The position numbers and the translations under genes were made by a program. A model generated the notes under the pieces. The model had not been told where the DNA came from and made no database searches. It saw only the letters and a program-made list of their open reading frames with translations. Shown one piece after another: positions 2,607-57,941 of a stretch of DNA of 64,000 nt. Origin of the DNA: an uncultured Chromatiales bacterium (lineage in GTDB: Bacteria > Pseudomonadota > Gammaproteobacteria > SZUA-140); assembly GCA_964581365.1 (NCBI GenBank), contig CAZOOF010000002.1, forward strand, positions 9,826 through 73,825, read 5' to 3'. Position 1 is the stretch's first letter; the number at the start of each line of letters is the position of its first letter.

Positions 2607-2649
2607 ATCTTTTTGCGAGTTACTTTGCGAGCCGGCAGCAGATGCCCGA

Positions 2650-11255: not shown

Positions 11256-11277
11256 GCGAGCCGGCTACGGCGCCCGC

Positions 11278-12636: not shown

Positions 12637-12797
12637 GATGGCGTTCAGCTTACCATGACGCTGCCGGGATGCCAGCCGTCGATTCGGGACACCGCGGCTC
12701 CCGCTTGGGTACAATCTTGAATCGCGACCCGAATTCGCGTCCCCGGGCGCAAAGCGGGCCGGCGAAACGGCACGCCGATCAGGGACACACGAACGTA

Positions 12798-13787: not shown

Positions 13788-13815
13788 GCTCCGGGGCGAT
13801 GCATCGGGGCCGCTC

Positions 13816-15045: not shown

Positions 15046-15090
15046 CCCGGGTGGCTCAGGACAGCGGGCGCTTCGGCAAAAGCTTGTCCG

Positions 15091-17062: not shown

Positions 17063-17063
17063 G

Positions 17064-17576: not shown

Positions 17577-17598
17577 GGATCCGCCATCGGGCGTGCCT

Positions 17599-18474
17599 TC
17601 AGGCGCTGAAGTATTTCGCTTGGGGATGATGCACGACGATGGCGCTGGTGCTCTCCTCCGGCCAGAGCTGAAATTCGTCTCCGAGCACGACGCCGATGCG
17701 GGAGGCATCCAGCAGGTTCAGGATCTTGTCCTGATCGGCGAGCTCGGGACAGGCGGGGTAACCGAAGGAATAACGAGAACCCCTGTAGCCCTGTTTGAGC
17801 ATGTCGGCGATGGTGCGCGCATCTTCGCGGGCAAAGCCGAGTTCGGCCCGGATCCGTTTGTGCACGAATTCGGCCAGCGCCTCGGTGGTTTCCACATTGA
17901 GGCCATGGAGGTAGAGGTATTCCTGATACTGGTCGGCGGCAAACAGCGCGCGCGCGACGTCGGACGCATGCTGCCCTACGGTGACCACCTGGAATGCCAC
18001 GACATCCTTCATGCCCGATTCGACGGAACGGAAGAAATCCGCGATGCACAGCCCGCGCCCCTTTTTCTGCCGCGGGAACTGAAAACGGCAAATCTCCCGG
18101 TTATGGTCTTCCGCATCGTAAACGATCAGATCATCGCCGTCCGATTGACACGGAAAATAGCCGTAGACGGCCTGCGGTCGGATGATGTCTTCGCGTTCGG
18201 CGCGTTCGACGATGCGATTGAAGATCGGATCGACCTCGGTCCGCGCCCAGGCCTGGTACTCGGCCTCACCGCGGCCCGCGGCCTTGAAACCCCACTGGAA
18301 TCGATAAAGCGTCCGGCGGTTGATATAGGGCAGAACCGCGCGCAATGGCACACGTTCCAGACAGCGGCCGCCGTAAAATGGCGGCACAGGCACCGGATTG
18401 TCGGTCACCGGCCAGCGCGCGCCCGCGATGGCTTCCCTGTCATCATCCTGATTTTCCGGAGTCGTCTCGCTCAT
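17599..18474 (-). CDS. Standalone vitamin-B12-dependent methionine synthase activation (AdoMet-binding/reactivation) domain protein.
   Basis: Aligns along its length with the MetH C-terminal module (…FPYINRRTLYRFQWG…AVYGYFPCQSDGDDL…FPRQ…YLYLHGL…YRGSRYSFGYPACPEL…STSAIVVHHPQAKYF). Confidence 0.8.
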   Translation of the reverse strand: MSETTPENQDDDREAIAGARWPVTDNPVPVPPFYGGRCLERVPLRAVLPYINRRTLYRFQWGFKAAGRGEAEYQAWARTEVDPIFNRIVERAEREDIIRPQAVYGYFPCQSDGDDLIVYDAEDHNREICRFQFPRQKKGRGLCIADFFRSVESGMKDVVAFQVVTVGQHASDVARALFAADQYQEYLYLHGLNVETTEALAEFVHKRIRAELGFAREDARTIADMLKQGYRGSRYSFGYPACPELADQDKILNLLDASRIGVVLGDEFQLWPEESTSAIVVHHPQAKYFSA

Positions 18475-18524
18475 CGGGACATGATAACGTGACCCGCGCA
18501 AGGAAACGAGGCCACAGCGAAACC

Positions 18525-19459: not shown

Positions 19460-19804
19460 ATGAACGCCAAGCGCCTCTACCGTATCGCGTTTCTCAATGG
19501 CGGCAAGCTTTACGAGATCTACGCCCGCTCTGTTTCACAGAGTGAGCTGTACGGATTCGTCGCGATCGAGGAGATCGTTTTCGGCGAAAAATCGGCCCTG
19601 GTGGTCGATCCCGCCGAGGAACGGCTGAAGAGCGAATTCGCCGGAGTCCGTCGCAGCTACGTCCCGCTGCATGCCGTGGTCCGCATCGACGAGGTCGACA
19701 AGCAGGGGACGGCGAAAATCAGCGCCACCGGCGAGGGCAAGATCACGCCGTTCCCAGGCACCTTCTATGGCGCGGGCAAGCCGCCGGAATCGGGTGACGC
19801 CTGA
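19460..19804 (+). CDS. DUF1820-family small protein.
   Basis: [22 protein letters not shown]…VVRIDEV is a conserved hypothetical widespread in gammaproteobacteria. The family name is recalled, not searched. Confidence 0.55.
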
Positions 19805-20784
19805 TCGCCGTCGCGCGCGCAGCGGAAACCCAGATCGAGAAACCGCGCCGCAGGATGCAGCGGATAGCGATAGGCCGCGCGGTAAAAGTGGCTGATGACG
19901 TAGTGACCGAGCCCGCCCCAGCCGCCGCCACGGGCGACCTTGAGCCTTTCACCCTCAGGTAGTTCGAACTCAGAGCCTTCGTACGGTGCATACCAGTCGT
20001 CCACCCACTCCATGACGTTTCCGGCCATATCGTAGGCGCCGTAATATGATTTTCCGGCTTCGATTGAACCGACCGGACGCAGGCCCGCTTCCTGACCGGC
20101 GATCACCCGCTCCCGGCTCCAGGTATCTCCCCAGGGAAACTCACGCCCGTCGGGCCCCCGGGCCGCTTTCTCCCACTCCTTTTCGGTCGGCAACCGCTTT
20201 CCGGCCCACTCGCAATACAGGCGCGCGTCCTGCCAACCGACTCCGGCGACGGGCAGCGAATCCTGTTCCCGGCGCTTGCGCTCGATGAGGTCAAGCACGG
20301 CGCCCCGATCCAGGTCTGCGAGTTCGCCTTCAATGCCGAACATGTCGAGCGCCAGCCCCCGCAATTCCTCCACACCGAGATCGGCGGCTTCGAGAATCTC
20401 ACGCGTCAGCAGATAACCGCTGCTTTGCCAGCCGTCCGGCACCCAATGATCGGTCTCGATCACGAAACGGCTGTATTCGAGATTCGTCACCTCATGACGA
20501 TCGATGAAGAAGGTATCGAGATGGAGACGGCGCTGAGGCGTCTCGTCGAGGTATGGCGCCTTGTTGAGCCCGAATTCCGCGAGATCAGGGCCGCCCGCGG
20601 CGCTCGCCGGGGTTCCAAACAGAAACCCGCCGGCCGGCACCGGAACCATGTCGCCGGCGCTTGCCCCGGTCGCCGCCATGAGGAGCCCCGCCGCAACGAT
20701 CAGGGCTCGAGCACCGGTATGATCGGCGGTGTTCGGGGTCACCACTTCCTCCTCTAGCGCCATCGGGCGGGCCGCGCGAAGCAC
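19765..20784 (-). CDS. Formylglycine-generating-enzyme (FGE/SUMF1) family protein, exported or membrane-anchored.
   Basis: FGE-sulfatase domain motifs (…[11 protein letters not shown]…[18 protein letters not shown]…RGGGW…). N-terminal hydrophobic segment. Confidence 0.8.
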
Positions 20785-20933: not shown

Positions 20934-21971
20934 TCAGTCCTGCGCGTCGCTGGCGCAACGGAAACCGAAGGTATCGTTTCGGACCCGTGCACTGAAGAAG
21001 CCGCGGTTGTAGACCGGGGCAGAAATACCACATTTGTAGAAGGAGCAATCCCACCAGGAACCGCCCTTGAGCACCCGATAGATTTCGCCGTAGTTCTCGG
21101 ACGGGCGGTCATTTCCCGGATACGGCTTATACCAAGAAGCGGTCCACTCCCAGACGTTACCGGTCACATCGTGCAGCCCATAGGGACTGGCGCCCTGCGG
21201 AAACGCGCCGACCGGCGTCGTATCTCCCCTGCGCTCGAGCGCCGACCAGCGCACAGGCGTATTGGCGCGGACGATATCGAAGTACTCACCCCAGGGGAAC
21301 GGCCGCCCATCGGTGCCGCGCGCAGCCTTCTCCCATTCGGTTTCGGTGGGCAGGCGCTTGCCTGCCCATGCACAGTAATCTCTGGCATCGAACCAGGAGA
21401 CCTGCACCACCGGATGATCCGCCTTCCCCGGCGGATGGCCGCGCCCCTCGAAATGTGCCGGCGCTCGCCGGTGGGTGGCCTCGATGAACTGCTGGTACTG
21501 AAGATTGGTCACCGGATAGCGATCGATGAGGTAATCGCCCAGGTAGACGACATGCTGCGGACCTTCGTCGGAAAAGCGCTCGTCGGTGCCCATGATGAAT
21601 TCACCGGCGGGAATGCGGATCATCGGGCCCGGATCGGCGCCGAAGCGGGAGCCTTCGTAATATTGAGGTCCTTGCAGACCCATGGCGTCATCAGCTCCAC
21701 CCCCGCCGGCGGCGACACCCTCCGCAACCGGCAGCGAAGACGCAGGGATGCCATCGGTGTGGCAAGCCAGGCAACCGCGGCTCTTCAGTTCTGGCGCAAA
21801 CACGCTGGCGGTATGACACTGCTCGCAGCGGGAAGCCTCTCCGCCGTGGTGTTCGATATCGTGGCCACGGGAGCCGGCCGGCGTCGTATCGGCGGCGAGC
21901 ACCGCCACCCCCGGCCCAACCGCCAGAGCGCAAGCAATGTACAGATGAAGGGTCAGCAGAGTTCGAGTCAT
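20934..21971 (-). CDS. FGE/SUMF1-family protein fused to an N-terminal di-heme c-type cytochrome region (CEQCH, CLACH), secreted.
   Basis: Signal peptide MTRTLLTLHLYIACALA, two CxxCH motifs, then an FGE domain (…YPVTNLQYQQF…[18 protein letters not shown]…GGSW…). Paralogous to the neighbouring gene. Confidence 0.8.
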   Translation of the reverse strand: MTRTLLTLHLYIACALAVGPGVAVLAADTTPAGSRGHDIEHHGGEASRCEQCHTASVFAPELKSRGCLACHTDGIPASSLPVAEGVAAGGGGADDAMGLQGPQYYEGSRFGADPGPMIRIPAGEFIMGTDERFSDEGPQHVVYLGDYLIDRYPVTNLQYQQFIEATHRRAPAHFEGRGHPPGKADHPVVQVSWFDARDYCAWAGKRLPTETEWEKAARGTDGRPFPWGEYFDIVRANTPVRWSALERRGDTTPVGAFPQGASPYGLHDVTGNVWEWTASWYKPYPGNDRPSENYGEIYRVLKGGSWWDCSFYKCGISAPVYNRGFFSARVRNDTFGFRCASDAQD

Positions 21972-22046
21972 CGCCAGCCAGATGCACGAGGCCTCGCGAA
22001 CGGCCCGGCAAGCCGCAATGATATCATGCGCTCCGCCGGGCATCGG

Positions 22047-22718
22047 TCAGCGGCGGGAGGCAAGGCGATGTGCGGCGCGCGTCGTTTCCGGCAACCGGTA
22101 CCGGCTGACGCAGCGCAGCACGAAGCCGATCGCGCTTGCGAGCGTGATGCGATGGCCAGCCGACACGAAAACCGGGCTGACACCGGCCCTGGTTCGCAGC
22201 ACCGCACCGATGCACTCGCCCCGGTCGAGCAGCGGACACCAGCCCCCCTTTTCCTGCGGCACCTCACCGTGCGTTCCGATCAGCCGGCTCTTGGCGACAC
22301 CGATCGTCGGCAGATCCAGCCACAGGCCGAGATGCGCGGCAATGCCCAAACGACGGGGATGAGCGACGCCGTGACCATCGCAGAGCACCAGGTCCGGCAT
22401 TTCGCTGACGCGCCCGAAGGCCTCCAGCACCGCAGGAAGCTCGCGAAACGAGAGCAGACCGGGCACGTAGGGAAAGGAAGTGGGGCGACGTGAAACGATG
22501 CTTTCGAGCGGCTGCAAGTCCGGAAACGACAGCACGGCGAGTGCCGCGCGGGTGATCGCCCCCTGCTCCTCGAAGCCGACATCGACTCCGGCGACGCGCC
22601 GCACGGAACCGAAATCATCGACATTGGTCCGAACGCTCCCTGCAAGTTCGCGCTGCAGGGCAATCGCCGCCTTCGGCGTCAGATCCCAGCCATGAAGCGG
22701 TTCGCGCCGCTTACTCAC
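22047..22718 (-). CDS. nfi: Endonuclease V (deoxyinosine 3' endonuclease).
   Basis: 224 aa aligning with E. coli Nfi (…AGVDVGFE…[11 protein letters not shown]…[19 protein letters not shown]…[10 protein letters not shown]…YRLPE…). GTG start at 22718. Confidence 0.85.
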
Positions 22719-23265
22719 GCGCCCCAACGCTGCGCAGGTAGAGCACCACCTCGTTATTGCTCGCCAGCGTCGCCAGATGCATCGGCGTGGAGCCGTCAGC
22801 ATTGCGCAGGGTGTGATCGGCGCCGCCTGCGAGCAGCGCCCGGACGACCTCCAGATGCCCGCGCTGCGCCGCCCAGTGCAGAGCAGTGGTGCCGGTCTTC
22901 TCGGTCTGGTTCGGTTCGGCGCCACGCGACAGCAGCAGCTTCACCGTCTCGACCTGACCACGATGCGCAGCCCGCATCAACGCTGTCCAGCCGTCATCGT
23001 CGGCGGCATTGACATCGGCCCCGTTGTCGATCAGTAAGGAGACAATGTCGTCGTTGCCCAGGCGTGCCGCGTGCATCAGCGCAGTCCAGCCAAAATTGTT
23101 GCGCTCGTCGACCGCGGTGCCGGCTTCCAGCGCACTCCTCACCTCATCGGCGCGATCATGCATCGCCGACTTCATCAGCTCGGTGTTGCCGTCACAGCCG
23201 GCGAGCAGCAGCGCAAAGGCAAGGAGCGCCGGGATACAAAGCAGCCGTGTGCGACAGTTCTTCAT
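22711..23265 (-). CDS. Ankyrin-repeat lipoprotein (184 aa).
   Basis: Lipobox LLAGC after a signal peptide, then about 4 ANK repeats ([20 protein letters not shown]…[21 protein letters not shown]…). Confidence 0.75.
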
Positions 23266-23494
23266 CGCGCCCGATTCTATCATGAAGCGCCTGCCCGCCC
23301 GCGCCCAGCGACGCGCGCCGGCCAGCTCGTGGCCACGCCCGCTATGAATTACCGGCGCCATGCGGCTATCATCTTCCGGAGCTGTCCGCCCGACACCGCT
23401 GTTCCCGCAGATCCCGATACCGGCGCCCATTCGGTTACCGGCAGCGATGAAGCGATCGACAGCAGCGAACTGAACCGCTCTCCGGATGCCATCA

Positions 23495-23794
23495 ATGAAG
23501 CTTTTCCCTTGTCCCAAGTGTCGCCAGAATGCCATTCCCCTCAAGGACAAGTATCTGGCGGCCATCTGGATGAGCGTGCACTGCCCGCGCTGCGGCACGC
23601 GCCTGTGCGCGCATCCGCTACTGATGACGCTTCTTTATTTCATCTACTTCTGGATTGCCGCTGCCTGCATTTTCCTTGCAGTGGCATGGAGCAGCTGGGT
23701 ACCGCTGCTGGCGATGCTGGCGCTGTGGCTGCTGGTGGATCTGGCCAGCATCGCGTGGATGCCGCTGCGCGCCATGCGTCCGCGGATGGGCTGA
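23495..23794 (+). CDS. Small zinc-ribbon membrane protein (about 99 aa), hypothetical.
   Basis: N-terminal CPKC…CPRC zinc ribbon followed by two TM helices. Confidence 0.5.
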   Translation: MKLFPCPKCRQNAIPLKDKYLAAIWMSVHCPRCGTRLCAHPLLMTLLYFIYFWIAAACIFLAVAWSSWVPLLAMLALWLLVDLASIAWMPLRAMRPRMG

Positions 23795-29830: not shown

Positions 29831-32800
29831 TCAGGAGGCGCGTAGCTGACGTTCGAATTCGTCCGGCGTCAGCGCCGGACTGCGCAGGAAGCCCTGATAA
29901 CGGTCGCAGCCGAGGGCTGCGAGGAAGGCAAGCTGACGCTCGTTCTCGACCCCTTCGGCGAGAATCCTGAGGTTCAGCGCCTGACCCATAGCGACGATGG
30001 CGCGCACCAGTTCGCAGTCACTGGGATCATCTGGAATTCCTTCGATGAAGCGCCGGTCGATTTTCAGCACATCCAGCGGGAAACGCTTGAGATGGGCAAG
30101 GGAAGAGTAACCGGTGCCGAAATCGTCGATCGCCAGCCGGATACCGAGATCACGCAAACGGCCCAGTATGATTTCGGCCTCCTCGGCATGGGTCATGATC
30201 GCGGTTTCGGTGAGCTCGAACTCCAGATGCCGGGGTGGGAAACCGGTATCCTTCAGGAGGCGATCCACCTGCTCATGAACATCCGAGTGCAGTAACTGGC
30301 GCGGAGACAGATTGACTGCCAGCGTCAGCGGCGGCAGGCCCTCATCCAGCCAGCGCCTTCCTTGCCGGCATACTTCACGCAAGGCCCAGCTGCCAATCTG
30401 CGCGATCATCCCCGTTTCTTCGGCGAGCGCGATCCATTCCGCGGTCGGCATCAGCCCGCGCTCGGGATCGTACCAGCGCAGCAGCGCTTCGGCGCCTATT
30501 ATCCGCCCGCTGGCAACCTCCACCTGAGGCTGATAGCAGACCTGCAATTGGCCCGCCCCGAGGGCGCGGTGCAACTGTGACTGCATCTCCACCCGCATTC
30601 GGGACGCTTCGGTCATTTCGTCGGAGTAGAACCGGACCTGCCCCTGTCCTTCGCCCTTGGCCCGATAAAGCGCGGCGTCAGCCTGTTGCAGCAGCAGCTC
30701 GGCGGTACGGCCATGCTCCGGGCACAGACTGACGCCGACACTGACATTGATCCGCACCTCCGAACCGTTGGACAGGTGCAGGGGTTCCGCAAGCTGGCGA
30801 ATGATCTTGGAGGCGATGCCGCTCACCTCACTGACCCCGCTGATGTCCTCCAGCAGGATGCAGAACTCGTCGCCGCTGAATCGCGCGACGGTATCGGCTG
30901 AACGCACGCAACGGCGCAGGCGCTCCGCCGACAGCCGCAGCAACTCATCGCCGGCCAGATGACCGAAGCTGTCGTTGATTTCCCCAAAGCCGTCCAGATC
31001 GAGCATGAGCACTGCCAGTCCGCCACCCCGCCTGATACGGACTTCTATCGAATGTTCCAGCCGGGTACGCATCAGCAGGCGATTGGGAAGGCCGGTGAGG
31101 GCATCGTGATGCGCCTGATGAGCAAGCTTGGCTTCAGATGCCTTGAGCCGCGAGATATCGGTGAACACCCCGACGTATCCGCTGATGCGTCCGCCCTGAT
31201 CGCGCAGGACGCTGATGCTGAGCAGGGAAGGAAAGATCTCTCCGCTCTTGCGCCGATCCCATACCTCGCTGCGCCAGTGACCGGTCTCGCGCAACCCACT
31301 CCACAGCTCGCGGTAGAAATCGAGGCCATGCCGACCGGAGCGGAACATCTCCGGGGTATTCCCCAGGATCTCCGCTTCCTCGTAACCCATCATGCGGCAG
31401 AGGGCTGGATTGACCATGGTGATCCGACGATCGGCATCAGTGACCAGAATACCGTCACCACTCCTTTCGAAGACCATCGCCGCCTGACGCAATCGTTCTT
31501 CGTTGCGCCTCCGCTCGGTGATATCCTGTGCCGTTCCGATGCCTTTCAACAGGGCACCGTGCTCATCGAAAGTCAGGTTCGCGCGCTCGCGTATCCATTT
31601 CTCCTCGCCGTTTACGACGATCCGGTGCTCCAGATCGTACTCCTCACCCCGGAGTGCCCGTTTCCAGGCCTCGTCCACCATGCGCTGGTCGTCGACGTGC
31701 ACGCAGCCGAGAAAGCGCTCATAGGTAAGCGTCTCACCAACCGGGATGCCGAAGATGCGATAGCATTCGGGTGACCAGATCAGAACGTTCCGGCGGATAT
31801 CCAGCGACCAGCTTCCGATGCGGGCGACTCTCTGCGCGCGATTGAGATCTGCCTCGCGCTCCCGTAGCGTTTCCTCATAGGCCCGGCGTTCGCTCACATC
31901 CTGGATGCTCGCAATCAGATACTCGGGGACGCCGGCCTCGTCGACCAGACACTGCACATGAATAGACGCGTAAACAGGGGTTCCGTCGCGATGCAGCAGC
32001 CGCAGCTCTGCCTGTGAGCCCGCGACATCACCCGCCAGGACACGGCGCAGGCGAAGCGGATCACCCCGGCGATCAGCAGGGTGCAGAAGGGTTCTCCAGT
32101 CGCATTGCAGCAGCTCCTTCTCCGAGCGGCCGAGCATCTGGCACAGACAGGCATTGACGTTGACCGGCCTTCCCGTACGCGTGGAGAACATCGCGATGCC
32201 GGTGAAAGGCATATCGTGAAACGCCTGCACCAGACGATTCTTTTCCGCCTGCGCTGCCATGAGCGCGTCCTGGGTGCGCCGGCGATAGCGGCGCTGCACG
32301 TAGAAGACCGCGCTGACCAGCGGAAACATCGCTGCCAGGGCCGCCAGCGTTACCCACATGACGAAGCGGCGCAGCGGCGCCATGATTGCGCCCTGGTCGA
32401 TCAGCGTCATCACCAGCCAGTCGGTCGTCCCCACCGGATGATATGCTGCAAGGATCGCAGCGCCATTGCCATTGCGACCTGAAACCAGCCCCGGTCTGCC
32501 GGGATGCGCCTCCGCAAGCAGTCCTGGCGCAGAAAAACGCCTCGATTCGCCCAGTATCCTGATTCCGCCTTCACCCTGACGATAGACGATCGCGGTGCGA
32601 TCGGAGCCCGCCGGGAAAGCCTGCTCCAGCAACTGGCGAAGGCGATGCGCGTCACTCCGCATCACCAGCGTGGCCACCGGTACGCCGGGACGCGCACTGT
32701 CACTCAACGGCACTATCCAGTCGAGGTACGGCACGTTCGCTTCGCTGTAATGCAGGAACGGTCCAACACCGGCACCGCCACGCACCAGATTCATCAGCTG

Positions 32801-33427
32801 GGGTGGAACGCCTACGTAAGCTCCGCGCAGCAGGACTGCATTCCCGTCCGGATTGAACAGCAGCATCGCCCGATAGCGGTCGCCTCGCAGCATCGAATCG
32901 AGACGATCGACCACCGGCTCGAATCTGGCGCGGGTACCGTCATAGAAGAAGTCCGCGATCTGGCGCGCGAAGCCAGAACTTCCCATCAGCATCTCAGCGT
33001 CAGCGCTCCGTTCGTCGAGCCAGTTCTCCATTTCGCTGGCTATGCGCGCGGCATCGGCCGCCAGCGTACGCTGCGCCTCCCACTCGAGCTGCTCGGAGTG
33101 CTTGCGTGCCATACCGATATCGGTCACCGGCACGATCATGGCAAGACCGATCAGAATTGCGGTGAGGTGCCTGGGAGAGGCCCAGATCGGACCATCGCTG
33201 GAGGAGTGGCGCGTCCAGCGATGAAGGAGGTAGAGCACGCCGGCAGTTACGGAAACGAAGATGAGGGCCTTCGCCACTCCGATGCGCGGCAGCGCGCTTT
33301 GGTTGCCTACGACGACGGTGGTAAGCCAATCGGCACTGGCTGCCCAGAGGGCGACGAAACAGGCATACAACACCACGACGGCTGCGGGGCCGTAGACGCG
33401 GACTTGTGTGCCTGAAGAGGAGTGCAT
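29831..33427 (-). CDS. Multidomain c-di-GMP sensor protein: N-terminal multi-TM region with a periplasmic sensing domain, three PAS/PAC domains, GGDEF (…FSGDEF…) and EAL (…EGVEN…, …KIDRRFI…) domains. About 1198 aa.
   Basis: Domain motifs read from the translation. AGGAGA RBS before the ATG at 33427. Divergent from the decaheme gene with 113 bp between starts. Confidence 0.85.
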   Translation of the reverse strand: MHSSSGTQVRVYGPAAVVVLYACFVALWAASADWLTTVVVGNQSALPRIGVAKALIFVSVTAGVLYLLHRWTRHSSSDGPIWASPRHLTAILIGLAMIVPVTDIGMARKHSEQLEWEAQRTLAADAARIASEMENWLDERSADAEMLMGSSGFARQIADFFYDGTRARFEPVVDRLDSMLRGDRYRAMLLFNPDGNAVLLRGAYVGVPPQLMNLVRGGAGVGPFLHYSEANVPYLDWIVPLSDSARPGVPVATLVMRSDAHRLRQLLEQAFPAGSDRTAIVYRQGEGGIRILGESRRFSAPGLLAEAHPGRPGLVSGRNGNGAAILAAYHPVGTTDWLVMTLIDQGAIMAPLRRFVMWVTLAALAAMFPLVSAVFYVQRRYRRRTQDALMAAQAEKNRLVQAFHDMPFTGIAMFSTRTGRPVNVNACLCQMLGRSEKELLQCDWRTLLHPADRRGDPLRLRRVLAGDVAGSQAELRLLHRDGTPVYASIHVQCLVDEAGVPEYLIASIQDVSERRAYEETLREREADLNRAQRVARIGSWSLDIRRNVLIWSPECYRIFGIPVGETLTYERFLGCVHVDDQRMVDEAWKRALRGEEYDLEHRIVVNGEEKWIRERANLTFDEHGALLKGIGTAQDITERRRNEERLRQAAMVFERSGDGILVTDADRRITMVNPALCRMMGYEEAEILGNTPEMFRSGRHGLDFYRELWSGLRETGHWRSEVWDRRKSGEIFPSLLSISVLRDQGGRISGYVGVFTDISRLKASEAKLAHQAHHDALTGLPNRLLMRTRLEHSIEVRIRRGGGLAVLMLDLDGFGEINDSFGHLAGDELLRLSAERLRRCVRSADTVARFSGDEFCILLEDISGVSEVSGIASKIIRQLAEPLHLSNGSEVRINVSVGVSLCPEHGRTAELLLQQADAALYRAKGEGQGQVRFYSDEMTEASRMRVEMQSQLHRALGAGQLQVCYQPQVEVASGRIIGAEALLRWYDPERGLMPTAEWIALAEETGMIAQIGSWALREVCRQGRRWLDEGLPPLTLAVNLSPRQLLHSDVHEQVDRLLKDTGFPPRHLEFELTETAIMTHAEEAEIILGRLRDLGIRLAIDDFGTGYSSLAHLKRFPLDVLKIDRRFIEGIPDDPSDCELVRAIVAMGQALNLRILAEGVENERQLAFLAALGCDRYQGFLRSPALTPDEFERQLRAS

Positions 33428-33540
33428 GGGTCTCCTATCGGCACTTACGAGCGAGGATATGAATGACGTGATGCGAGTAAACCAGCGTAACCCTTTGCTT
33501 GCATCGGTCGATATCTTGGGCAACCCACCGGATTCATGAC

Positions 33541-34404
33541 ATGCCTTCGCTTATTCTTATAGTTATTCTGCTGGCGCTGTCTTCTCTTGCTTCAGCCGGA
33601 GATCGCGCTCCGGAGTACGTCGGAGACCGCGAATGCAGCTATTGCCACAAGCTGGAAGCGCGTCAGCACGCGAACAGCGATCACGGCCGCCTGGTCAGCG
33701 GACGCGTCGGCGAAGCTCGCAGTTGTGAAGCTTGCCACGGCCCGGGCAGCCGCCATATCACCGTAGTGGGTGACCCCTTGTACCGCGGACCGCTGCATAT
33801 CCGCACCGGCGCGGACCTGAAACGCGATCCGGAAGCCACATGCCTGGCCTGCCACGAGAACGGCTCGCGACTGCACTGGCATGTCAGCGCCCATGCGGCA
33901 TCCGATCTCGGCTGCACGAGCTGCCACAGCATACATGATTCCGGCAAGACCACCGACTGCGGCGCCTGCCACCGTCGCGAGAGTACCCGATTGCAGCGCT
34001 CCGCACACATGCCGGTGCGGGAAGGATCCATGCAGTGTGCCGACTGCCACGACCCTCACGGCGGCGACGGACCAGCGGCGCTGCGTGCGGGATCGGTCAA
34101 CGAGATCTGTCATCGCTGTCATGCTGACAAGCGTGGCCCCATGCTGTTTGAACATCTTCCGGTACGGGAGGACTGCACGCTGTGCCATGACCCCCATGGA
34201 TCCAGCCATCGCAGCATGCTGGTCCGGAAACCGCCGACGCTGTGTCAGCAGTGCCATATGCTCGGCGGACATCCGAGCTGGCTTTACGATAGCGCCGAGC
34301 TCGCCAACGCCGATATCAGCCAGTACGGCGCGCGGAACTGTCTGAACTGTCATTCACGAATCCACGGCTCCAATCATCCCTCGGGATCACGGTTTCAGCG
34401 CTGA
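33541..34404 (+). CDS. mtoA: Decaheme c-type cytochrome of the MtrA/DmsE/MtoA/PioA family (periplasmic component of a porin-cytochrome conduit).
   Basis: Signal peptide MPSLILIVILLALSSLASA, then exactly ten CxxCH motifs in about 260 residues (CSYCH, CEACH, CLACH, CTSCH, CGACH, CADCH, CHRCH, CTLCH, CQQCH, CLNCH). The stop overlaps the start of the downstream barrel gene (TGATG). Confidence 0.85.
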   Translation: MPSLILIVILLALSSLASAGDRAPEYVGDRECSYCHKLEARQHANSDHGRLVSGRVGEARSCEACHGPGSRHITVVGDPLYRGPLHIRTGADLKRDPEATCLACHENGSRLHWHVSAHAASDLGCTSCHSIHDSGKTTDCGACHRRESTRLQRSAHMPVREGSMQCADCHDPHGGDGPAALRAGSVNEICHRCHADKRGPMLFEHLPVREDCTLCHDPHGSSHRSMLVRKPPTLCQQCHMLGGHPSWLYDSAELANADISQYGARNCLNCHSRIHGSNHPSGSRFQR

Positions 34405-36614
34405 TGCAGCCCGGGTTTCCACCACTCATCCTTCATCCCTTCCGGCGCCGGCGGCTTCGCCTGGCGATCGGCGCCATGCTTCTGTGCGCTGACGCGGCTG
34501 CGGCCGTACAGCTGAGCGGCCTGATCGAAATCGGCGGACTGTATCTCACCGACGAACGCTCCGGCGCGCAGGGCTCATACGGTCCGGCGATTCATCAGGG
34601 AATACATCCGCTCGGCAGCCTCGATCTGAGTGTCGATGGCGAGGGCAGTCGGACCCGCATCCAGGGATCCATGACCAGCCCGGACTTTGGAGACTTCGGC
34701 GTCACGCTGCTCGCGAAGGATGGCGATAGCGTCCGCCTCGACTACCAGCGAATGGCTCGCCGGGGAGACGACGGACTTTCATTATTGCAGAGCGGCGCAG
34801 ACATTCTGACCCTGCCCCCAGGCTTCGTGCCCGCGAACACGACTCAGGATTTCGATCTGAGTGTCCTGCAACCGGTGGAGCTCGGTACCAACCGGGAGCG
34901 CTATGGGATTGCGGCGCGTCTGTTTGCGGGAAACGACTGGAGAACGGATGTCTCGGTACGCGAGGAACGGCGCCGCGGGGTGCAGGAAATCGGTGCAATG
35001 GTTGGCGTCGATCCGCTCGAGGCGCGCTCCATCATTCTTCCCGCACCCGTGGATCAGCAGTTGCGTGAGCTGGATGCCGCCCTGTCCTGGGAGCGGGACG
35101 GCCGTCAGTTGCGCATTGCGTATCGCGGATCTCTGTTCACCAACCAGCACCAGGCGCATCGCTGGGAGGTACCCTTCCTGGCTGCAGGCGACGATCCGCT
35201 TCCCGATACCGGTCGGCTCGGCACATCGCCGGACAATCATCATCACAGCATTTCCATCGATGCGGGCACCCGTCTCGGCAAGACGTCCCGTCTTAGTGCG
35301 AGCGCCAGCCTGTCGCGCATGCAGCAGGATGAGGACCTCCTCCCATACTCGACCGGCGCATCGCTCACGGCGCTGCCGCGCAACTCGGCCGAGGCCCGTG
35401 TCGATGTGCTTCGCCTGGCGCTGAACGCAAGTGCCCGCCCCCTGGATCGGCTGACACTGAGCGCCCGCCACCGCTACTACCGCAGCGACGACCGTATACC
35501 GCGGACCCGCTTCGAGCCCGTGCTTGCCGATACCATAGCGGGTCGCGCCACCATCAGCCGGCCCTACGACCACTTTCAGGCCAAAACACTTGTGCGGGCA
35601 GTGTATCGGGCAGCGACCGGATCGCGGATCCTGACGGAATGGACCCATGACATCGTCGGCCGCGATCTCCCTGGCAATGGGGGACACACCCGTGAAAACG
35701 GTCTGAAACTTGGTCTGCAACAGACGATCACGAGCCGGGCTCGTGCCCGCCTGTCCTTGCTGCATGCCGATCGCAACCGGCACGGACACGACGCCGTAAT
35801 CATCGACCCCACTGCTGCGGCCTCCTGTCCTGAAATAGTACTGGTGGATCCGGATCCCGATGGCGGAGCGCCGCGGGAGATCGATCGTTGCATCGGACAG
35901 CATCCGGATATGAGGCGGTTCATGCTGGGCGACCGCATCCGCCAGCGGCTCCAGACCGCAATCGACTGGTGGCCAACGGACGATGTGGATTTCGAACTGG
36001 GCTGGAGCATCAGCCGGGATCGGTACCGCGATCAAGCGGTATTCGACGATACTGTCTTCGGTCTGAGGGACAGCCGGGAAAGGATGCTGTACACCAACCT
36101 CAATTGGTCAGCACATGAATCATGGTCGATCAGCATTGCTTATTCCCGCGAGTATCTCGATGCGGCGCAGACCGGGCGGGACATGGCGCATGACCAGCCG
36201 TCAGCGCCGATCGACTCCAGCACCAACTGGCGGGCCCGCTCACATGACCGCGCCGATACCATCAGCGCGGGCCTTCGTCTCGACCTCCCCGACGGACGCA
36301 CCCGCCTGGCGCTGGATCTGGCTCACATTCGCGAACGCAATCGAATCCGGCTCGAAAGCCGCCTGCCTGCAGCCCAGCTTCCCGATGATGGCGCCAGGCG
36401 GCAGTACGCAGAGCTTCATGGAGAGCACGAGCCCGATGACCGGATCCTGCTGAAGGCGGGAGTGCGCTGGGAAGCGGTCATGGCGACCGACCGCAGCGAC
36501 AGTGGCATCGAAGTCGGAGAGATGCCCGGATTGAACGGAGTGCTGGCCTTGCGCAGTGGTGACACCGACTACGATGTCCTGCTGATCTGGAGTTCGATCA
36601 CATACCTTTGGTAG
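34404..36614 (+). CDS. mtoB: MtrB/MtoB/PioB-family outer-membrane beta-barrel porin partner of the decaheme cytochrome.
   Basis: 736 aa. N-terminal signal peptide, amphipathic beta-strand periodicity throughout, and a C-terminal …SITYLW aromatic terminus. Translationally coupled to mtoA. Size matches MtrB/PioB. Confidence 0.75.
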   Translation: MQPGFPPLILHPFRRRRLRLAIGAMLLCADAAAAVQLSGLIEIGGLYLTDERSGAQGSYGPAIHQGIHPLGSLDLSVDGEGSRTRIQGSMTSPDFGDFGVTLLAKDGDSVRLDYQRMARRGDDGLSLLQSGADILTLPPGFVPANTTQDFDLSVLQPVELGTNRERYGIAARLFAGNDWRTDVSVREERRRGVQEIGAMVGVDPLEARSIILPAPVDQQLRELDAALSWERDGRQLRIAYRGSLFTNQHQAHRWEVPFLAAGDDPLPDTGRLGTSPDNHHHSISIDAGTRLGKTSRLSASASLSRMQQDEDLLPYSTGASLTALPRNSAEARVDVLRLALNASARPLDRLTLSARHRYYRSDDRIPRTRFEPVLADTIAGRATISRPYDHFQAKTLVRAVYRAATGSRILTEWTHDIVGRDLPGNGGHTRENGLKLGLQQTITSRARARLSLLHADRNRHGHDAVIIDPTAAASCPEIVLVDPDPDGGAPREIDRCIGQHPDMRRFMLGDRIRQRLQTAIDWWPTDDVDFELGWSISRDRYRDQAVFDDTVFGLRDSRERMLYTNLNWSAHESWSISIAYSREYLDAAQTGRDMAHDQPSAPIDSSTNWRARSHDRADTISAGLRLDLPDGRTRLALDLAHIRERNRIRLESRLPAAQLPDDGARRQYAELHGEHEPDDRILLKAGVRWEAVMATDRSDSGIEVGEMPGLNGVLALRSGDTDYDVLLIWSSITYLW

Positions 36615-38133
36615 CCCGTACCGCAGACCTCCGGTCGCCTGCGCTGGCCGAGGCCATGACTACCCGGTTGCGTCCATCGCTCTTGGCCATGTAGAGCGCC
36701 ATGTCGGCGGCCCGGATCAGTTCCTCACCGGCGCCGGCGTGACGCGGCAGCTCGGCCACGCCGATGCTGACGGTCAGATGCAAGGTATCACCCGCGCGAT
36801 CATCCAGAGGACGAGCCGAGATCGCCATCCGCAGCCGCTCAGCGATCGCCAGAGCGGTTTCGGCGCGGGTGTCGGGAAGCGCAATGATGATCTCCTCGCC
36901 ACCATACCGCGCCACCAGATCCTGCTGACGGGCTTTCTCGCGAACGACCGCACTGACCATGCGCAGTGCGTCGTCGCCGACCTGGTGCCCGAACGAATCA
37001 TTGATGTTCTTGAAGTGATCGACATCCATCATCAGCACCGATAGCGGCCGATCCGGCCCATGTGCGGCAATCAGACGATCGAATTCCGAATTGAAACTGG
37101 TGCGATTGAGCAGGCCGGTGAGTCCGTCATGATTTGCCAGGCGTTCCAGCTTGCTCTGGTCCTCCTGCAGTTTGTTCGCCATGTCATTGAACCCGATGAC
37201 GAGGTCATCGATCTCGTCGCCGCTCAGGCGGCGCCGGGGCAGTTCGAAGCGCGCGCCCAGGTCGCCGGCCGACAGACGCTCCATGGCACCGCGCAGCTTG
37301 TTGATGTTGCGGAACACCAGGCGATCGAATACGACGAAGATCAACACCAGGCTTGCCAGGCTTGCCAGGATCTTCAGCACCAGCTGTGACAACAGGGTGC
37401 CGTGGATGTCACGGTTGACCTCGGCGATGGAAAACTTCAGCTCGACCGCTCCAAGCACCTCGCCTTCACGCGCATCGAAGTGGCAACCGGTGGCCTCGGA
37501 GCAACCGCTCCTGCGCACCTGATAGGGCGCAACCATGCGCATGAGATCGCCATCTATGGTGAACTCCGTCTGCGCCGTTTCCAGCACTCTTCGTTCGAGT
37601 TCATCATGCGGTCGCGAACGGGGATCCACCTCGAGCGGCTGATTATAGCTGCGGACCAGGTCCCGGGAACGCGCGATCTCGAAGCTCAGCTCGTTCATCG
37701 CGACGATCATGTCGGCTCGCTCGTCGGGATCTCTCACCTCCACCAACTCGCGCTCCAGGCGAGCCAACTCAGCTTCACTATCATGTATATAGTTGAGTTC
37801 TCTCGGGAGATCGATTTCCCGGCGAACCCGCTCGAAGATCTCGTTGACCCGGGGTCCGCGGATGACACGTATGGACTCAACCTCCGAGAGTTCGCGCGAA
37901 AGATCCTCGAAGTAGGAAAACCGGGCGCTCATCTTGCCCTCACGCATCAGCGCATTGAGGGCGACGCGGACACCCTCGCCGGCGGCCCCCCCCCAGCGCT
38001 GCACCTCCTGCATCACCAGCTGACGTGCCTGCTGCACCTCCAGCCATACCGCCGTCACCACGAATGGCAGCCAGATCAGCCCGATCGTCAGGATCAGCTT
38101 GGTGCTCAGGCGGCTTGAGATCGGTCTTTTCAC
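36598..38133 (-). CDS. Membrane diguanylate cyclase: periplasmic sensor domain (about 230 aa, contains C-x5-C-H 'CSEATGCH'), TM, HAMP, then GGDEF (RYGGEEI).
   Basis: N-terminal TM (LILTIGLIWLPFVVTAV), periplasmic region, second TM (LVLKILASLASLVLIFVVF), HAMP, and GGDEF motifs (DGLTGLLNR…DVDHFKNIND…RYGGEEI). It lies 7 nt downstream of the tetraheme cytochrome gene. Confidence 0.85.
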   Translation of the reverse strand: MKRPISSRLSTKLILTIGLIWLPFVVTAVWLEVQQARQLVMQEVQRWGGAAGEGVRVALNALMREGKMSARFSYFEDLSRELSEVESIRVIRGPRVNEIFERVRREIDLPRELNYIHDSEAELARLERELVEVRDPDERADMIVAMNELSFEIARSRDLVRSYNQPLEVDPRSRPHDELERRVLETAQTEFTIDGDLMRMVAPYQVRRSGCSEATGCHFDAREGEVLGAVELKFSIAEVNRDIHGTLLSQLVLKILASLASLVLIFVVFDRLVFRNINKLRGAMERLSAGDLGARFELPRRRLSGDEIDDLVIGFNDMANKLQEDQSKLERLANHDGLTGLLNRTSFNSEFDRLIAAHGPDRPLSVLMMDVDHFKNINDSFGHQVGDDALRMVSAVVREKARQQDLVARYGGEEIIIALPDTRAETALAIAERLRMAISARPLDDRAGDTLHLTVSIGVAELPRHAGAGEELIRAADMALYMAKSDGRNRVVMASASAGDRRSAVRATKGM

Positions 38134-38140: not shown

Positions 38141-38722
38141 TCACCGGTAGCTGCGATGGTAGCTGCGGGTCTTTGTTAGGCGCTCCTCGAAATCGAATTC
38201 GTATTTCCCGTCGAGCGCGGGCTGGAACGGGGTGTCTTCGTGCTCATGACAGGCGGTACATACCGACGGATCATCCGACCCATAGCGCTGCCCGGCGCTT
38301 ATCAGCTCATCGCGATCGAGACTGCCACGGCGGGTTTTGTGGATCTCCCGATATTTCTCCCCAGCGCCGTGGCACATCTCACAACCGATGCCGGCGCGAT
38401 TGGGCGTTTCGCGCGCGCTCACATAGCCACCAGGCAAGCGAAAGCCCGTCGTATGACAGCGCAGGCAATCCTCTTCGGTCGTGTAGTCGCGCGACGGATC
38501 GAGATCTGCTTTTTTCTTCGGAGCACGACGCTGCCCCGGCTTGAGCAGCTCGAAGGCGCGTGCATGCGAACTCCGGCGCCAGTCTTCGTATTGGGCCTTG
38601 TGACACATGGCACAGCTCTCATGACCGACATACTCTGGACCCGGACCCGAAGCGGCGTTCAGACCGGAATGAGCAGCCGCAGTCCCGGCAACCACCAAAG
38701 CCAGGACCACCCAGCGGGCCAT
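38141..38722 (-). CDS. Periplasmic tetraheme c-type cytochrome (193 aa).
   Basis: Signal peptide MARWVVLALVVAGTAAA, then four CxxCH motifs (CAMCH, CLRCH, CEMCH, CTACH). Its N-terminus (PEYVGHESCAMCHK) parallels that of the decaheme protein (PEYVGDRECSYCHK). Confidence 0.8.
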   Translation of the reverse strand: MARWVVLALVVAGTAAAHSGLNAASGPGPEYVGHESCAMCHKAQYEDWRRSSHARAFELLKPGQRRAPKKKADLDPSRDYTTEEDCLRCHTTGFRLPGGYVSARETPNRAGIGCEMCHGAGEKYREIHKTRRGSLDRDELISAGQRYGSDDPSVCTACHEHEDTPFQPALDGKYEFDFEERLTKTRSYHRSYR

Positions 38723-42371: not shown

Positions 42372-42662
42372 GTGTGGTCTGTCTATATCATCCAGTGCGC
42401 CGACGATACGCTCTACACCGGCGTCACCACCGCTGTCGATCGCCGTATGCGCGAGCATGCCAGCGGCGGACGGCGCGCGGCACGCTATCTGCGCGGCCGC
42501 GGGCCGCTGCGCCTGGTGTTTACCTGCGCCGTCGCCGATCGCGGCACGGCGCTGCGCATGGAGCATCGCATCAAAAAGCTGCCGAGACAATTCAAGGACA
42601 TGCTTATCTCCGGCAGCATTGCGCTGGATGCACTGGAACGGGACCATGATGGCTGTCGATGA
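42372..42662 (+). CDS. GIY-YIG nuclease-superfamily protein (YhbQ/UPF0213-like), 96 aa.
   Basis: VWSVYIIQCADDTLYTGVTTAVDRRMREHASG… versus E. coli YhbQ ([31 protein letters not shown]). GTG start at 42372 with GGAG 7 nt upstream. Confidence 0.7.
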   Translation: MWSVYIIQCADDTLYTGVTTAVDRRMREHASGGRRAARYLRGRGPLRLVFTCAVADRGTALRMEHRIKKLPRQFKDMLISGSIALDALERDHDGCR

Positions 42663-43452
42663 GTCCGGGACTTTGAGCGACGCCCCTTGGTGGACGACGC
42701 GGCACGTGAGTTCAGGGCGCACGCTGACGCTGCGGCTGGGGCCGCTCATACTCAGAGCGCATCGCAGTGCCAGCGAGTGGCTGCTATCCACCGAGGAGAT
42801 CGATGAAGCTGAAGCCGAGCCGCTAGCCACCCTGAAAATGAGCGATGAACGGCCGGATGAGCATGTGCGTTATGTGTGCCGCGATCCCGAGGACCGGATC
42901 ACTTTCCGCCCCATGCTCGCCGATCGCCCCATGGTCGTACGCCCTCGCCAGGCCGTCTACGTGCTGCCTGGCGAGGAAACGATCCTTTATATAAGCACAC
43001 CGGTATGGGTCGGCATAGTCGCCGGCGAGAAGGAGCTGTTGCTGCGCGAGATTCCCGTCTCCCGGCCATCCGACACCTGGTTCGGGCCATCGACGCTCAC
43101 CGGCGAGATCTGCTATGCGGCCCGCACCCAGGCCCGCAATGCGCTCACCGAAGTGCCGCTGCGCGCCCATCGCGTCCTAACCGCCCTGCGCATCGAAAAC
43201 CGTGCGGATACACCGCTTCCGGTGGAAAAACTCAGCCTTCCGGTACCCCTGCTTTCCACCTGGGGGCGGAGTGATGGCAGCCTTTGGTCCGATACAGTGC
43301 ATCTGCAGCGGGTAACCGACAGCGATATGGCGGCTGTGCGCGTGGAACGGGGACCGCCGGCTTATGCCAGCGACGCCACTCTGCTCGCCAGTCCCCGTAT
43401 GCAGGCCGGCAAGGGCGGTCTGGTACGCGCATTCTCCGGCCTGTTCAGCTGA
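42646..43452 (+). CDS. Conserved hypothetical protein (about 268 aa).
   Basis: Long ORF with protein-like composition. It overlaps the end of the GIY-YIG gene. No family recognised. Confidence 0.5.
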   Translation: MMAVDESGTLSDAPWWTTRHVSSGRTLTLRLGPLILRAHRSASEWLLSTEEIDEAEAEPLATLKMSDERPDEHVRYVCRDPEDRITFRPMLADRPMVVRPRQAVYVLPGEETILYISTPVWVGIVAGEKELLLREIPVSRPSDTWFGPSTLTGEICYAARTQARNALTEVPLRAHRVLTALRIENRADTPLPVEKLSLPVPLLSTWGRSDGSLWSDTVHLQRVTDSDMAAVRVERGPPAYASDATLLASPRMQAGKGGLVRAFSGLFS

Positions 43453-46297: not shown

Positions 46298-46579
46298 CGT
46301 TGGATTCCCTCCGGATTGCGATCATGACATCAGGATCGGGCGGCGACAAGCCCGTCCGGCCGCCCGCCACCAGCGGAAGCGGATGAAACCGGTCAGCTTT
46401 TTCTGTAAAATTCCGTCGCATAAAAAAGCGGTCTGGCCGGTCGCCGGCAAGGATCGCGCATGAGCCGGACCAACGGGGATCCATCCATACCCAGCAGCGA
46501 ACATCGTCACCTGCGCCCGATGCCGTGGGCAGGCCGATCCGGCCCCGAATCACCAATGTCTTTTGAGGAGATCTGCAGC

Positions 46580-47446
46580 ATGTCAGTCAAACATCCGGTC
46601 GTTGCCGTCACCGGTTCCTCGGGCGCGGGCACCAGCACGGTAAAGGCCTCGTTCGAGCACCTTTTCCGGCGTGAAGGTATCAAGGCCGCCATCGTCGAAG
46701 GCGATGCCTTCCATCGTTATGACCGCAACGAAATGAAGAAGGCGGTCGAGGAAGCGGCGCAGCAGGGCAGGACGCTGAGCCACTTCGGATCGGAAGCCAA
46801 TCTGTTCGAGGAATTGGAAGCGCTGTTCCGCAGCTACAGCGAAACCGGCACGGGCAAGGTCCGCAAGTACCTGCATGACGAGGAAGAGGCGGCCCCCTAC
46901 AAGCAGAAGCCCGGCACATTCACCCCCTGGGAAGATCTGCCCGGCGGCACCGATCTGCTGTTTTACGAAGGCCTTCATGGCGGCGTGGCCACCGAAACGG
47001 CCAATGTGGCCAAGTGGGTGGATCTGCTGATCGGCGTGGTGCCGATCGTCAACCTGGAGTGGATCCAGAAGATCCACCGCGATACATCCATGCGCGGCTA
47101 CTCGGCCGAAGCGGTGACCGATGCGATCCTGCGTCGCATGCCGGACTACGTGAAGACGATCACCCCGCAGTTCTCGCGTACCGACATCAACTTCCAGCGC
47201 GTGCCGGTGGTCGACACCTCCAACCCATTCATTGCTCGCGATATCCCCACGCTGGATGAAAGCTTCGTCGTCATCCGCTTCCGCTTCCCGGAAAAGCACG
47301 ACTTCCCGTACTACCTGTCGATGCTGAAGGATTCCTGGATGTCGCGTCCGAACACCATGGTCGTACCGGGCGGCAAGATGGGAGTGGCGATGGAGATCGT
47401 CCTGCGTCCGATCATCCACGACATGATGGAAAAGAGCCGCCGCTGA
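46580..47446 (+). CDS. prk: Phosphoribulokinase (Calvin-cycle PRK/CbbP).
   Basis: MSVKHPVVAVTGSSGAGTSTV… P-loop N-terminus, 289 aa as in bacterial PRK. Confidence 0.9.
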   Translation: MSVKHPVVAVTGSSGAGTSTVKASFEHLFRREGIKAAIVEGDAFHRYDRNEMKKAVEEAAQQGRTLSHFGSEANLFEELEALFRSYSETGTGKVRKYLHDEEEAAPYKQKPGTFTPWEDLPGGTDLLFYEGLHGGVATETANVAKWVDLLIGVVPIVNLEWIQKIHRDTSMRGYSAEAVTDAILRRMPDYVKTITPQFSRTDINFQRVPVVDTSNPFIARDIPTLDESFVVIRFRFPEKHDFPYYLSMLKDSWMSRPNTMVVPGGKMGVAMEIVLRPIIHDMMEKSRR

Positions 47447-56562: not shown

Positions 56563-56572
56563 CGAATCTCCG

Positions 56573-57934: not shown

Positions 57935-57941
57935 GCCGGGA

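Follow-up and report, generated by a model that had tools for sequence, protein, structure and literature searches.

In a 64-kb stretch of DNA from an uncultured Chromatiales bacterium (64,000 nt of contig CAZOOF010000002.1, assembly GCA_964581365.1; hereafter the window), we analyzed a pair of genes, mtoA and mtoB, that encode a decahaem c-type cytochrome and an outer-membrane porin. Convergent with them, immediately downstream, lie two further genes encoding a tetrahaem homologue of cytochrome c554 and a membrane diguanylate cyclase with a periplasmic sensor domain. The mtoA and mtoB products constitute a two-component porin-cytochrome conduit of the MtrAB/MtoAB/PioAB family without an MtrC-type surface cytochrome, in which the threading of the decahaem protein through the barrel and the haems themselves are predicted from sequence and structural models. 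We propose that the c554 homologue acts as the periplasmic partner of this conduit and that the conduit is thereby coupled to redox-sensing signaling through cyclic di-GMP (c-di-GMP), and we put the probability of this whole chain at roughly 0.6.

A sequence-only reading of the window had described a secreted protein with exactly ten CxxCH motifs, coupled through TGATG to a 736-aa barrel with a C-terminal aromatic residue, and had assigned the two to the MtrAB/MtoAB/PioAB conduits; each of these statements held up. The 287-aa decahaem protein begins with the hydrophobic signal sequence MPSLILIVILLALSSLASA followed by GD, and the motifs, exactly ten by count, stand at residues 32, 62, 101, 125, 140, 166, 190, 212, 235, and 267. 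Compared to the ~0.001 CxxCH expected in a random 287-aa protein (composition estimate, Cys ~1.5%, His ~2%), this number excludes chance as the source of the motifs. Ten His residues outside the motifs (48, 72, 118, 132, 173, 205, 219, 244, 275, and 279) are invariant in 18 decahaem homologues. By analogy with the MtrA/MtrB structure and its bis-His ligation, from which the ligand roles are taken (PMC7198977), they are the predicted distal ligands, which would make all ten haems bis-His coordinated.

The TGA stop of mtoA shares one base with the ATG of mtoB (...GCGCTGATGCAG...), and MtoB ends in ...SSITYLW, with Trp as its last residue. More than 20 metagenome contigs carry identical genes, for which independent gene callers chose these two starts and this one-base overlap as well; on this ground we rejected a chance open reading frame (ORF). 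We also rejected MtoB as a lipoprotein, its MLLC being a poor lipobox. NCBI, JGI, ENA, and Logan assemblies all contain the exact decahaem sequence, annotated as "DmsE family decaheme c-type cytochrome", and a 93%-identical MtoB orthologue is named "MtrB/PioB family outer membrane beta-barrel protein" by NCBI. The metagenome-assembled genome (MAG) GCA_034002745.1 holds a relative of the pair (MtoA 88%, MtoB 93% identity).

Against TIGR03508 (DmsE/MtrA), the decahaem protein scores 219 bits (cutoff 192.2) and covers profile positions 1-258 of 258, and its residues 21-287 align with MtrA of the Shewanella baltica Mtr complex (6r2q_A, E=1.2e-54). MtoB scores 278 bits over its full length against Pfam PF11854 (MtrB_PioB; gathering score 23) and 228 bits against NCBIfam TIGR03509, slightly under the cutoff of 240.05, and it matches MtrB (6r2q_B) at E=3.3e-28. 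The AlphaFold2 model of MtoB, which rests on a shallow alignment of 10 sequences, has a predicted local distance difference test (pLDDT) score of 72.8 and a predicted template modeling score of 0.71, with strands above 90 and low-confidence loops. Its 26 strands of at least 10 residues, the first few shorter, resemble MtrB (PMC7198977) and lie within the 26-28 that the sequence-only reading had anticipated for a barrel of the PioB/MtrB family. The best match of this model in the Protein Data Bank (PDB), by Foldseek, is 6r2q_B (E=2.8e-32, TM-score 0.71/0.80); the next matches are 22-strand TonB-dependent receptors at a TM-score of ~0.4.

The decahaem protein and the tetrahaem c554 homologue are the only multihaem ORFs in the window. 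MtrC/OmcA, CymA, MtoC, and a monohaem MtoD are all absent from it, in line with the earlier observation that no inner-membrane quinol dehydrogenase adjoins the pair. Of the 80 MtrA-family loci that we collected from reference genomes, many, including those of Shewanella, have MtrC-type genes as neighbors; the loci in the window's clade have none. MtoB further lacks the N-terminal CXXC of MtrB: the CKGC of S. baltica MtrB corresponds to CADA in MtoB, whose relatives do not conserve the Cys. This CXXC is reportedly (Wee et al. in 2014 are said to have noted it) a signature of metal-reducing gammaproteobacterial MtrB that is absent from MtoB and PioB. Because the window contains no MtrC/OmcA, CymA/MtoC, or MtoD and the porin has no MtrB-type CXXC, we class the conduit by architecture as a two-component MtoAB/PioAB type. 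The conduit itself is of an ordinary, known kind: both proteins are already named by the NCBI and JGI pipelines, and MtoAB homologues have been widely catalogued in Gammaproteobacteria (PMC10654088).

A neighbor-joining tree of 82 decahaem sequences (100 bootstraps) groups the window's protein with five metagenome or MAG homologues (48-88% identity) in a clade with 98% bootstrap support. The clade is separate from the Shewanella/MtrCAB-rich clade and also from a 100%-supported clade of Ferrigenium straubiae KS (the source of the Gallionellaceae MtoA of culture KS treated in PMC5566968), Thiococcus, Thiorhodococcus, and Rubrivivax; the branching order below these clades is weakly supported, and deep placement is poorly resolved. 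The placement relative to MtoA or MtrA that the sequence-only reading had called for was thus obtained as a tree in which the window's clade joins neither the Shewanella nor the Gallionellaceae/purple-sulfur sequences. Relatives from reference genomes are 34-48% identical to the window's protein among the matches listed, the Shewanella MtrA-family proteins there reaching 34-42% and MtoA of the Gallionellaceae in culture KS 38%. By sequence, the pair belongs to a distinct, well-supported gammaproteobacterial decahaem clade.

The c554 homologue can be aligned along its full length with Nitrosomonas europaea cytochrome c554 (1bvb; E=2e-32, 39% identity), sharing its four CxxCH motifs and three distal His, and scores 94 bits against PF13435. 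Its score against the CycA equivalog model, 136 bits, is far under the cutoff of 400, and the protein is not an equivalog of nitrifier CycA. One haem of N. europaea c554 is five-coordinate; for the assignment of His to haem in this pattern, including the one five-coordinate haem, we presume that the c554 structure applies. In nitrifiers, c554 carries electrons inward, relaying them to the CymA-like cM552. The start chosen by gene callers, which yields 193 aa, corresponds to Met23 of a longer ORF reaching position 38788. As the gene lies only 8 nt upstream of the cyclase gene, the two probably form one operon. Among c554 homologues, three (L111:7169-7756, L094:1587-2183, and L100:246-854) have CXCH, as C-K-C-H or C-S-C-H, for the first haem motif, with the other three motifs canonical.

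The cyclase scores 156 bits against PF00990 and 30 bits against PF00672 (HAMP). Its motifs, RQQD-X5-GGEEI, comprise an RxxD I-site and an A-site with Ile replacing Phe; the GGDEF active site is intact, and the protein is a predicted diguanylate cyclase. Transmembrane (TM) topology places the sensor domain in the periplasm, the compartment of haem c attachment. The cyclase gene and mtoB are convergent and their 3′ ends overlap by 17 nt (36598-36614), leaving no room for a terminator; through this overlap the two units might interfere with each other's transcription or be coupled in antisense. The overlap is likewise 17 nt in two relatives (L001 and L002) and 13 nt in L006, and L004 has an 11-nt gap in its place.

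The sensor domain has no match in Pfam or NCBIfam even at E≤10, PF11845 included, and a profile of its family returns only coiled-coil noise from PDB sequences. The family is rare: when 1.84 billion cluster representatives were searched exhaustively with HMMER, only 40 proteins passed E≤1e-3, 27 of them also E≤1e-10. The domain is N-terminal in all of the proteins found. When 39 of them were scanned for fusion partners, 20 carried methyl-accepting chemotaxis protein (MCP), nine histidine kinase, six GGDEF, and two EAL outputs, and 28 contained HAMP. An N-terminal domain joined in this way to MCP, histidine-kinase, GGDEF, and EAL outputs bears, by sequence, the hallmark of a modular sensor.

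Met63, Cys211, Cys217, and His218 are near-invariant in the sensor family, with X8 between the Cys residues in a few members. In the AlphaFold2 model (27-sequence alignment, pLDDT 87), a long N-terminal helix is followed by a small antiparallel sheet with an inserted helical hairpin (residues ~94-163), and the Cys...Cys-His motif sits in the loop preceding the last beta strand. By two methods, the haem-c sensors Tll0287 and GSU0935 were among the top compact fold matches to this model. DUF3365, Tll0287, GSU0582, and GSU0935 have been defined as "sCache_heme" in a 2026 preprint, which describes a strictly conserved CXXCH in an insertion before the last strand (bioRxiv 10.64898/2026.02.01.703092). 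GSU0935 has Cys140/Cys143 and binds its haem through Met60 and His144, with binding and release of the Met linked to redox state (PMC8396549). The offset of 74 residues between His144 and His218 matches the length of the inserted hairpin. By this analogy, Met63 and His218 would correspond to Met60 and His144, and analogy and model together suggest that the domain is probably haem-binding and of the Cache type.

The arrangement of these genes is also found beyond the window. The mtoA-mtoB pair with the convergent cyclase and c554 genes is kept in three close relatives (L001-L003), and the same arrangement occurs in a sister subclade (L004-L006, L087, and the contig carrying P0016) whose decahaem proteins are 48-52% identical to that of the window and whose outer flanks are wholly different, containing pheST, HU, and MerR genes. 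It occurs again in L088, where the flanking genes differ once more. A fourth lineage, L111, has ATP synthase genes followed by c554, mtoA, and mtoB in that order, all three on the same strand. The c554 gene adjoins mtoAB in four flank contexts (the window group, the pheST/HU/MerR group, L088, and L111), a breadth of only about four independent lineages. In the window's clade, the c554 homologue always accompanies the conduit, and the sensor cyclase does so in most cases. Among the 80 broader MtrA-family loci from reference genomes, the sensor domain was found in none and a strong c554-family neighbor in four.

We also observed c554-family tetrahaem genes downstream of MtrAB in other phyla (L008, L029, and L086, the last a Terriglobia MAG, 13685-17567). 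The L086 protein scores 191 bits and is followed by further 4-5-haem cytochromes. These occurrences hint that conduits of this kind have acquired c554-type carriers repeatedly. A scan for the sensor domain recovered 14 metagenome loci, 12 of which have a c554 homologue directly upstream of the sensor gene; these c554 proteins are 40-63% identical to that of the window, and sensor identity falls as low as 28%. The sensor loci without an upstream c554 gene (L091:7172-9829 and L092:5633-7402) both retain C-X5-CH, and the former adjoins genes that gave us the impression of being phage-like.

On the other side of the conduit, divergent from mtoA, lies a gene for a membrane PAS-GGDEF-EAL protein (Pfam: EAL 251 bits, GGDEF 151 bits, and three PAS domains). 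Since its GGDEF motif is degenerate (SGDEF) and its EAL motifs are intact, this protein is likely to be a c-di-GMP phosphodiesterase. A second c-di-GMP gene flanks mtoA in two subclades, encoding PAS-GGDEF-EAL in one and HDOD-GGDEF in the other, with both architecture and orientation differing; none was seen at the mtoA flank in L088. Scans for promoters and terminators performed no better than on shuffled sequence, and the window contained no Rfam family at its gathering score. Upstream of mtoA, the Rfam search revealed neither a c-di-GMP nor a cGAMP riboswitch, and an alignment of mtoA upstream regions contained no recognizable regulator box, conservation there being limited to close relatives.

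Based on this information, we hypothesize that the soluble tetrahaem c554 homologue would exchange electrons with MtoA in the periplasm, a role that MtoD or PioC has in other systems, and would carry them between the conduit and an inner-membrane partner encoded outside the window. It may also equilibrate with a haem c that the sensor would bind covalently at C-X5-CH; there, Met63 would bind and release the haem with changes in redox state, as Met60 does in GSU0935, and the signal would pass by way of TM2 and HAMP to the GGDEF domain. The level of c-di-GMP, and hence attachment, biofilm formation, or motility on a mineral or electrode, would then track electron flux through the conduit, with the neighboring PAS-GGDEF-EAL protein supplying the opposing phosphodiesterase activity. 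The sequence-only reading had left the periplasmic electron route open, and the presence of the c554 and sensor cyclase genes downstream therefore offers a partial answer, pointing to a candidate carrier.

Several observations weigh against this proposal. Most of the distant c554-sensor pairs are surrounded by housekeeping genes and have neither a conduit nor another multihaem gene in their vicinity. The pair is on this account an autonomous unit that has been joined to MtoAB in the window's clade, and its placement beside mtoAB could for that reason reflect shared ancestry in one clade rather than function. Support for a haem on the sensor is also qualified: Foldseek E-values to the haem-c sensors are weak (~0.01), the family has no detectable sequence similarity to sCache_heme either through PF11845 or with its profile against PDB sequences, and a full-text literature search returned no report of C-X5-CH as a haem-c motif. 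An alternative role for the two Cys residues would be in a disulfide bond or as metal ligands. The c554-sensor-cyclase operon may accordingly be an independent periplasmic sensor of nitric oxide (NO) or redox state that is merely syntenic with a conduit using unlinked carriers. The five-coordinate haem of N. europaea c554 would suit such a role, as would the orientation of the c554 and cyclase genes, which are convergent with mtoAB and not co-transcribed with it. Signaling-fused sCache_heme members, moreover, behave as NO sensors (bioRxiv 10.64898/2026.02.01.703092). Against mere synteny, the association persists through full turnover of the flanks in at least three contexts, L111 has c554 directly upstream of mtoA on the same strand, c554-family genes recur beside MtrAB in the unrelated phyla mentioned above, and the second c-di-GMP gene at mtoA is found in two subclades with different architectures. 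We consider an independent sensor unlikely, although a serious competitor. A different possibility keeps the three components together and changes their purpose: the locus would be a trans-envelope redox-sensing wire, not primarily a respiratory or energy pathway, in which MtoAB samples extracellular solids or Fe(II)/Fe(III), c554 relays the sensed potential across the periplasm, and the haem-Cache sensor, of a new class with a Met/His switch, converts it to c-di-GMP. The absence of an adjacent quinone-linked partner and the presence of c-di-GMP genes on both sides of the conduit would fit this idea, which we hold to be distinctly doubtful. Were it true, how well a mineral or electrode donates or accepts electrons would decide whether the cell settles on it or departs.

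Returning to the proposal of a conduit partnered by c554 and coupled to c-di-GMP signaling, we next weighed the direction of electron flow. Inward flow, that is, oxidation of Fe(II), a mineral, or a cathode, is mildly favored because the window has no MtrC, the porin has no MtrB N-terminal CXXC, c554 has an inward role in nitrifiers, and prk and fbp are present. We grade it no higher because Baker et al. found no function-specific clades for MtoA/PioA and MtrA and concluded that direction cannot be inferred from sequence (PMC8805035). The flow direction is accordingly not determinable from sequence, and Mtr conduits are reversible in the laboratory (PMC8805035). The same conduit could thus operate outward, as an MtrAB-type core without MtrC that delivers electrons to Fe(III), Mn(IV), humics, or shuttles, with c554 as periplasmic donor. 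Besides the findings of Baker et al., the similar identities to Shewanella MtrA-family proteins and to KS MtoA among the matches listed and the poorly resolved deep placement of the clade are compatible with this direction. The lack of an MtrC/OmcA-type surface cytochrome in the window speaks against it, as do prk and fbp and the missing CXXC, in which S. oneidensis requires Cys42 to reduce Fe(III) (PMC12175506); none of the three is decisive, and we regard outward flow as rather improbable. An assignment of the decahaem protein to a periplasmic nitrite/hydroxylamine-type or DmsEF-type system has in its favor weak matches to NrfH and NrfB-type models and to "faint" Pfam families, as well as a partner cytochrome homologous to nitrifier c554. 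The protein reaches only 21 bits against the NrfH-type model (cutoff 134), far from its DmsE/MtrA score, and aligns end to end with MtrA as its partner does with MtrB, so that the sequence-only reading's choice of MtrA over nitrite- or hydroxylamine-type multihaems is upheld and we rejected the latter. The DmsEF type was rejected because the window holds no DmsAB, and HAO and Nrf genes are absent from it as well. This last alternative is effectively refuted already.

Coordinates of the features discussed, as positions in the 64-kb window
Feature	Position	Strand	Details or basis
mtoA-like decahaem c-type cytochrome	33541-34404	+	287 aa, signal peptide, ten CxxCH, ten further invariant His
mtoB-like outer-membrane porin	34404-36614	+	736 aa, predicted 26-strand barrel, C-terminal Trp
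Membrane diguanylate cyclase	36598-38133	-	511 aa; TM1, periplasmic sensor, TM2, HAMP, GGDEF
Periplasmic sensor domain, residues ~33-245	37399-38037	-	No family assignment; Cache-like fold with inserted helical hairpin
CSEATGCH, near-invariant C-X5-CH, putative covalent haem-c site	37480-37503	-	Translation, conservation, model position, GSU0935 analogy
Invariant Met63 (LMREG), putative partner of C-X5-CH	37936-37950	-	Conservation
Tetrahaem cytochrome c554 homologue	38141-38722	-	193 aa, signal peptide, four CxxCH; PF13435, 1bvb
Membrane PAS-GGDEF-EAL protein, divergent from mtoA	29831-33427	-	1198 aa by gene callers; ORF reaches 33523
Divergent intergenic region between PAS-GGDEF-EAL gene and mtoA, presumed promoter(s)	33428-33540	.	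Position only
Phosphoribulokinase (prk)	46460-47446		PF00485 226 bits; NF011997 509 bits vs cutoff 362
Class I fructose-1,6-bisphosphatase (fbp)	59640-60761	-	
RegB/RegA-like pair	609-2493	-	Best matches, below NCBIfam equivalog cutoffs
Rubredoxin ORF (CVICG...CPECG)	2650-2874	-	Motif

The sequence-only reading had also proposed a probable autotroph from a context of prk, RegBA, and rubredoxin. The prk assignment stood, above its cutoff, as did rubredoxin by its motif; the RegB and RegA assignments did not reach equivalog level. For autotrophy itself the evidence consists of prk and fbp, and the window contains no RuBisCO gene. The NCBIfam prk model matched here presumably also covers enterobacterial PrkB. 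The context fits a CO2-fixing lithotroph without proving one. The rubredoxin ORF lies directly upstream of the six-TM RegB/PrrB-like kinase and the RegA/PrrA-like regulator, forming a redox-regulatory cluster at 609-2874(-).

Elsewhere in the window, two adjacent genes encode FGE-sulfatase-domain proteins (20934-22043(-) and 19765-20784(-)). Two CxxCH motifs occur in the ORF of the larger one (20934-22043(-), 369 aa), suggestive of a fusion between a dihaem cytochrome and an FGE-type domain. A 971-aa LVIVD-repeat protein (6816-9731(+); PF08309 172 bits, with a weak "choice-of-anchor B" match) is followed on the opposite strand by genes for an OmpA-like eight-strand barrel and a TauE/SafE exporter. 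Five ORFs of 331-488 aa (11254-12720, 15653-17101, 17230-18492, 42457-43452, and 58402-59526) have a coding-like GC content at third codon positions; at the thresholds used, neither Pfam nor NCBIfam gave a match for any of them. The genes gcvH, gcvP1, and gcvP2 lie at 54569-58340(-), and no glycine riboswitch was found in the window at the Rfam gathering score. Ankyrin-repeat proteins are unusual in free-living Gammaproteobacteria; one of 295 aa is encoded at 22711-23598(-).

Among known conduits, the MtoAB systems of Gallionellaceae (Sideroxydans lithotrophicus ES-1, Gallionella ES-2, culture KS, and Ferrigenium straubiae) resemble that of the window in having a decahaem protein of ~300 aa followed by an MtrB/PioB porin, with matches to the same profile families, no MtrC, and a probable CO2-fixing proteobacterial host. 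The window's decahaem protein is ~38% identical to the KS homologue and falls in a separate clade. The PioABC system of Rhodopseudomonas palustris TIE-1 is likewise a two-component electron-uptake conduit with a small soluble periplasmic carrier alongside. PioA has ~540 aa with a long N-terminal extension, whereas the window's decahaem protein has 287 aa, and the carrier PioC is a high-potential iron-sulfur protein, whereas that of the window is a tetrahaem c554; we set the two apart by description. In the Gallionellaceae, mtoABD-cymA and mtoABCD operons supply a monohaem MtoD together with an inner-membrane CymA or MtoC (PMC5566968). The window lacks these as well as the Gallionellaceae cytochrome b561-dihaem fusion (PMC5566968), having c554 and c-di-GMP genes instead. 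MtrCAB of Shewanella (6R2Q) provides the sole solved homologues, MtrA and MtrB, and shares the 26-strand barrel; the window lacks MtrC/OmcA and the MtrB N-terminal CXXC, belongs to a separate clade, and differs in its periplasmic and inner-membrane partners. An MtoAB clade with a c554 companion in place of MtoD, PioC, or CymA is not described in the comparative literature that we searched, and this companion is a concrete candidate for the missing periplasmic step.

The nearest parallel to the c554 operon is the c554 (CycA)/cM552 (CycB) pair of N. europaea, where the gene after that for c554 likewise encodes a membrane protein whose periplasmic domain binds haem, as that of the window's protein putatively does. 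The window has no hydroxylamine oxidoreductase (HAO), and the gene following c554 encodes a sensor diguanylate cyclase instead of a NapC/NirT quinone reductase. The literature searched likewise describes no genetic link of c-di-GMP signaling to a conduit for extracellular electrons; such a link bears on how lithotrophs decide to colonize minerals or electrodes.

For the sensor, the closest known counterparts in architecture are the sCache_heme proteins, in which a Cache fold likewise lies in the periplasm, flanked by two TM helices, with Cys...Cys-His in the loop that precedes the last strand, a conserved Met on the N-terminal helix, and fusion to MCP, histidine-kinase, or GGDEF outputs. The window's family differs in having no PF11845 match, in its C-X5-CH (X8 in some members) compared to their strict CXXCH, and in its inserted hairpin of ~70 residues; it is also very rare and nearly always preceded by a c554 gene. 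A rare, unmodeled family of periplasmic Cache-type sensors with an atypical C-X5-CH does not appear in the literature searched, and if it binds haem as predicted, it would extend the haem-Cache sensors to a non-canonical haem motif and a dedicated cytochrome partner.

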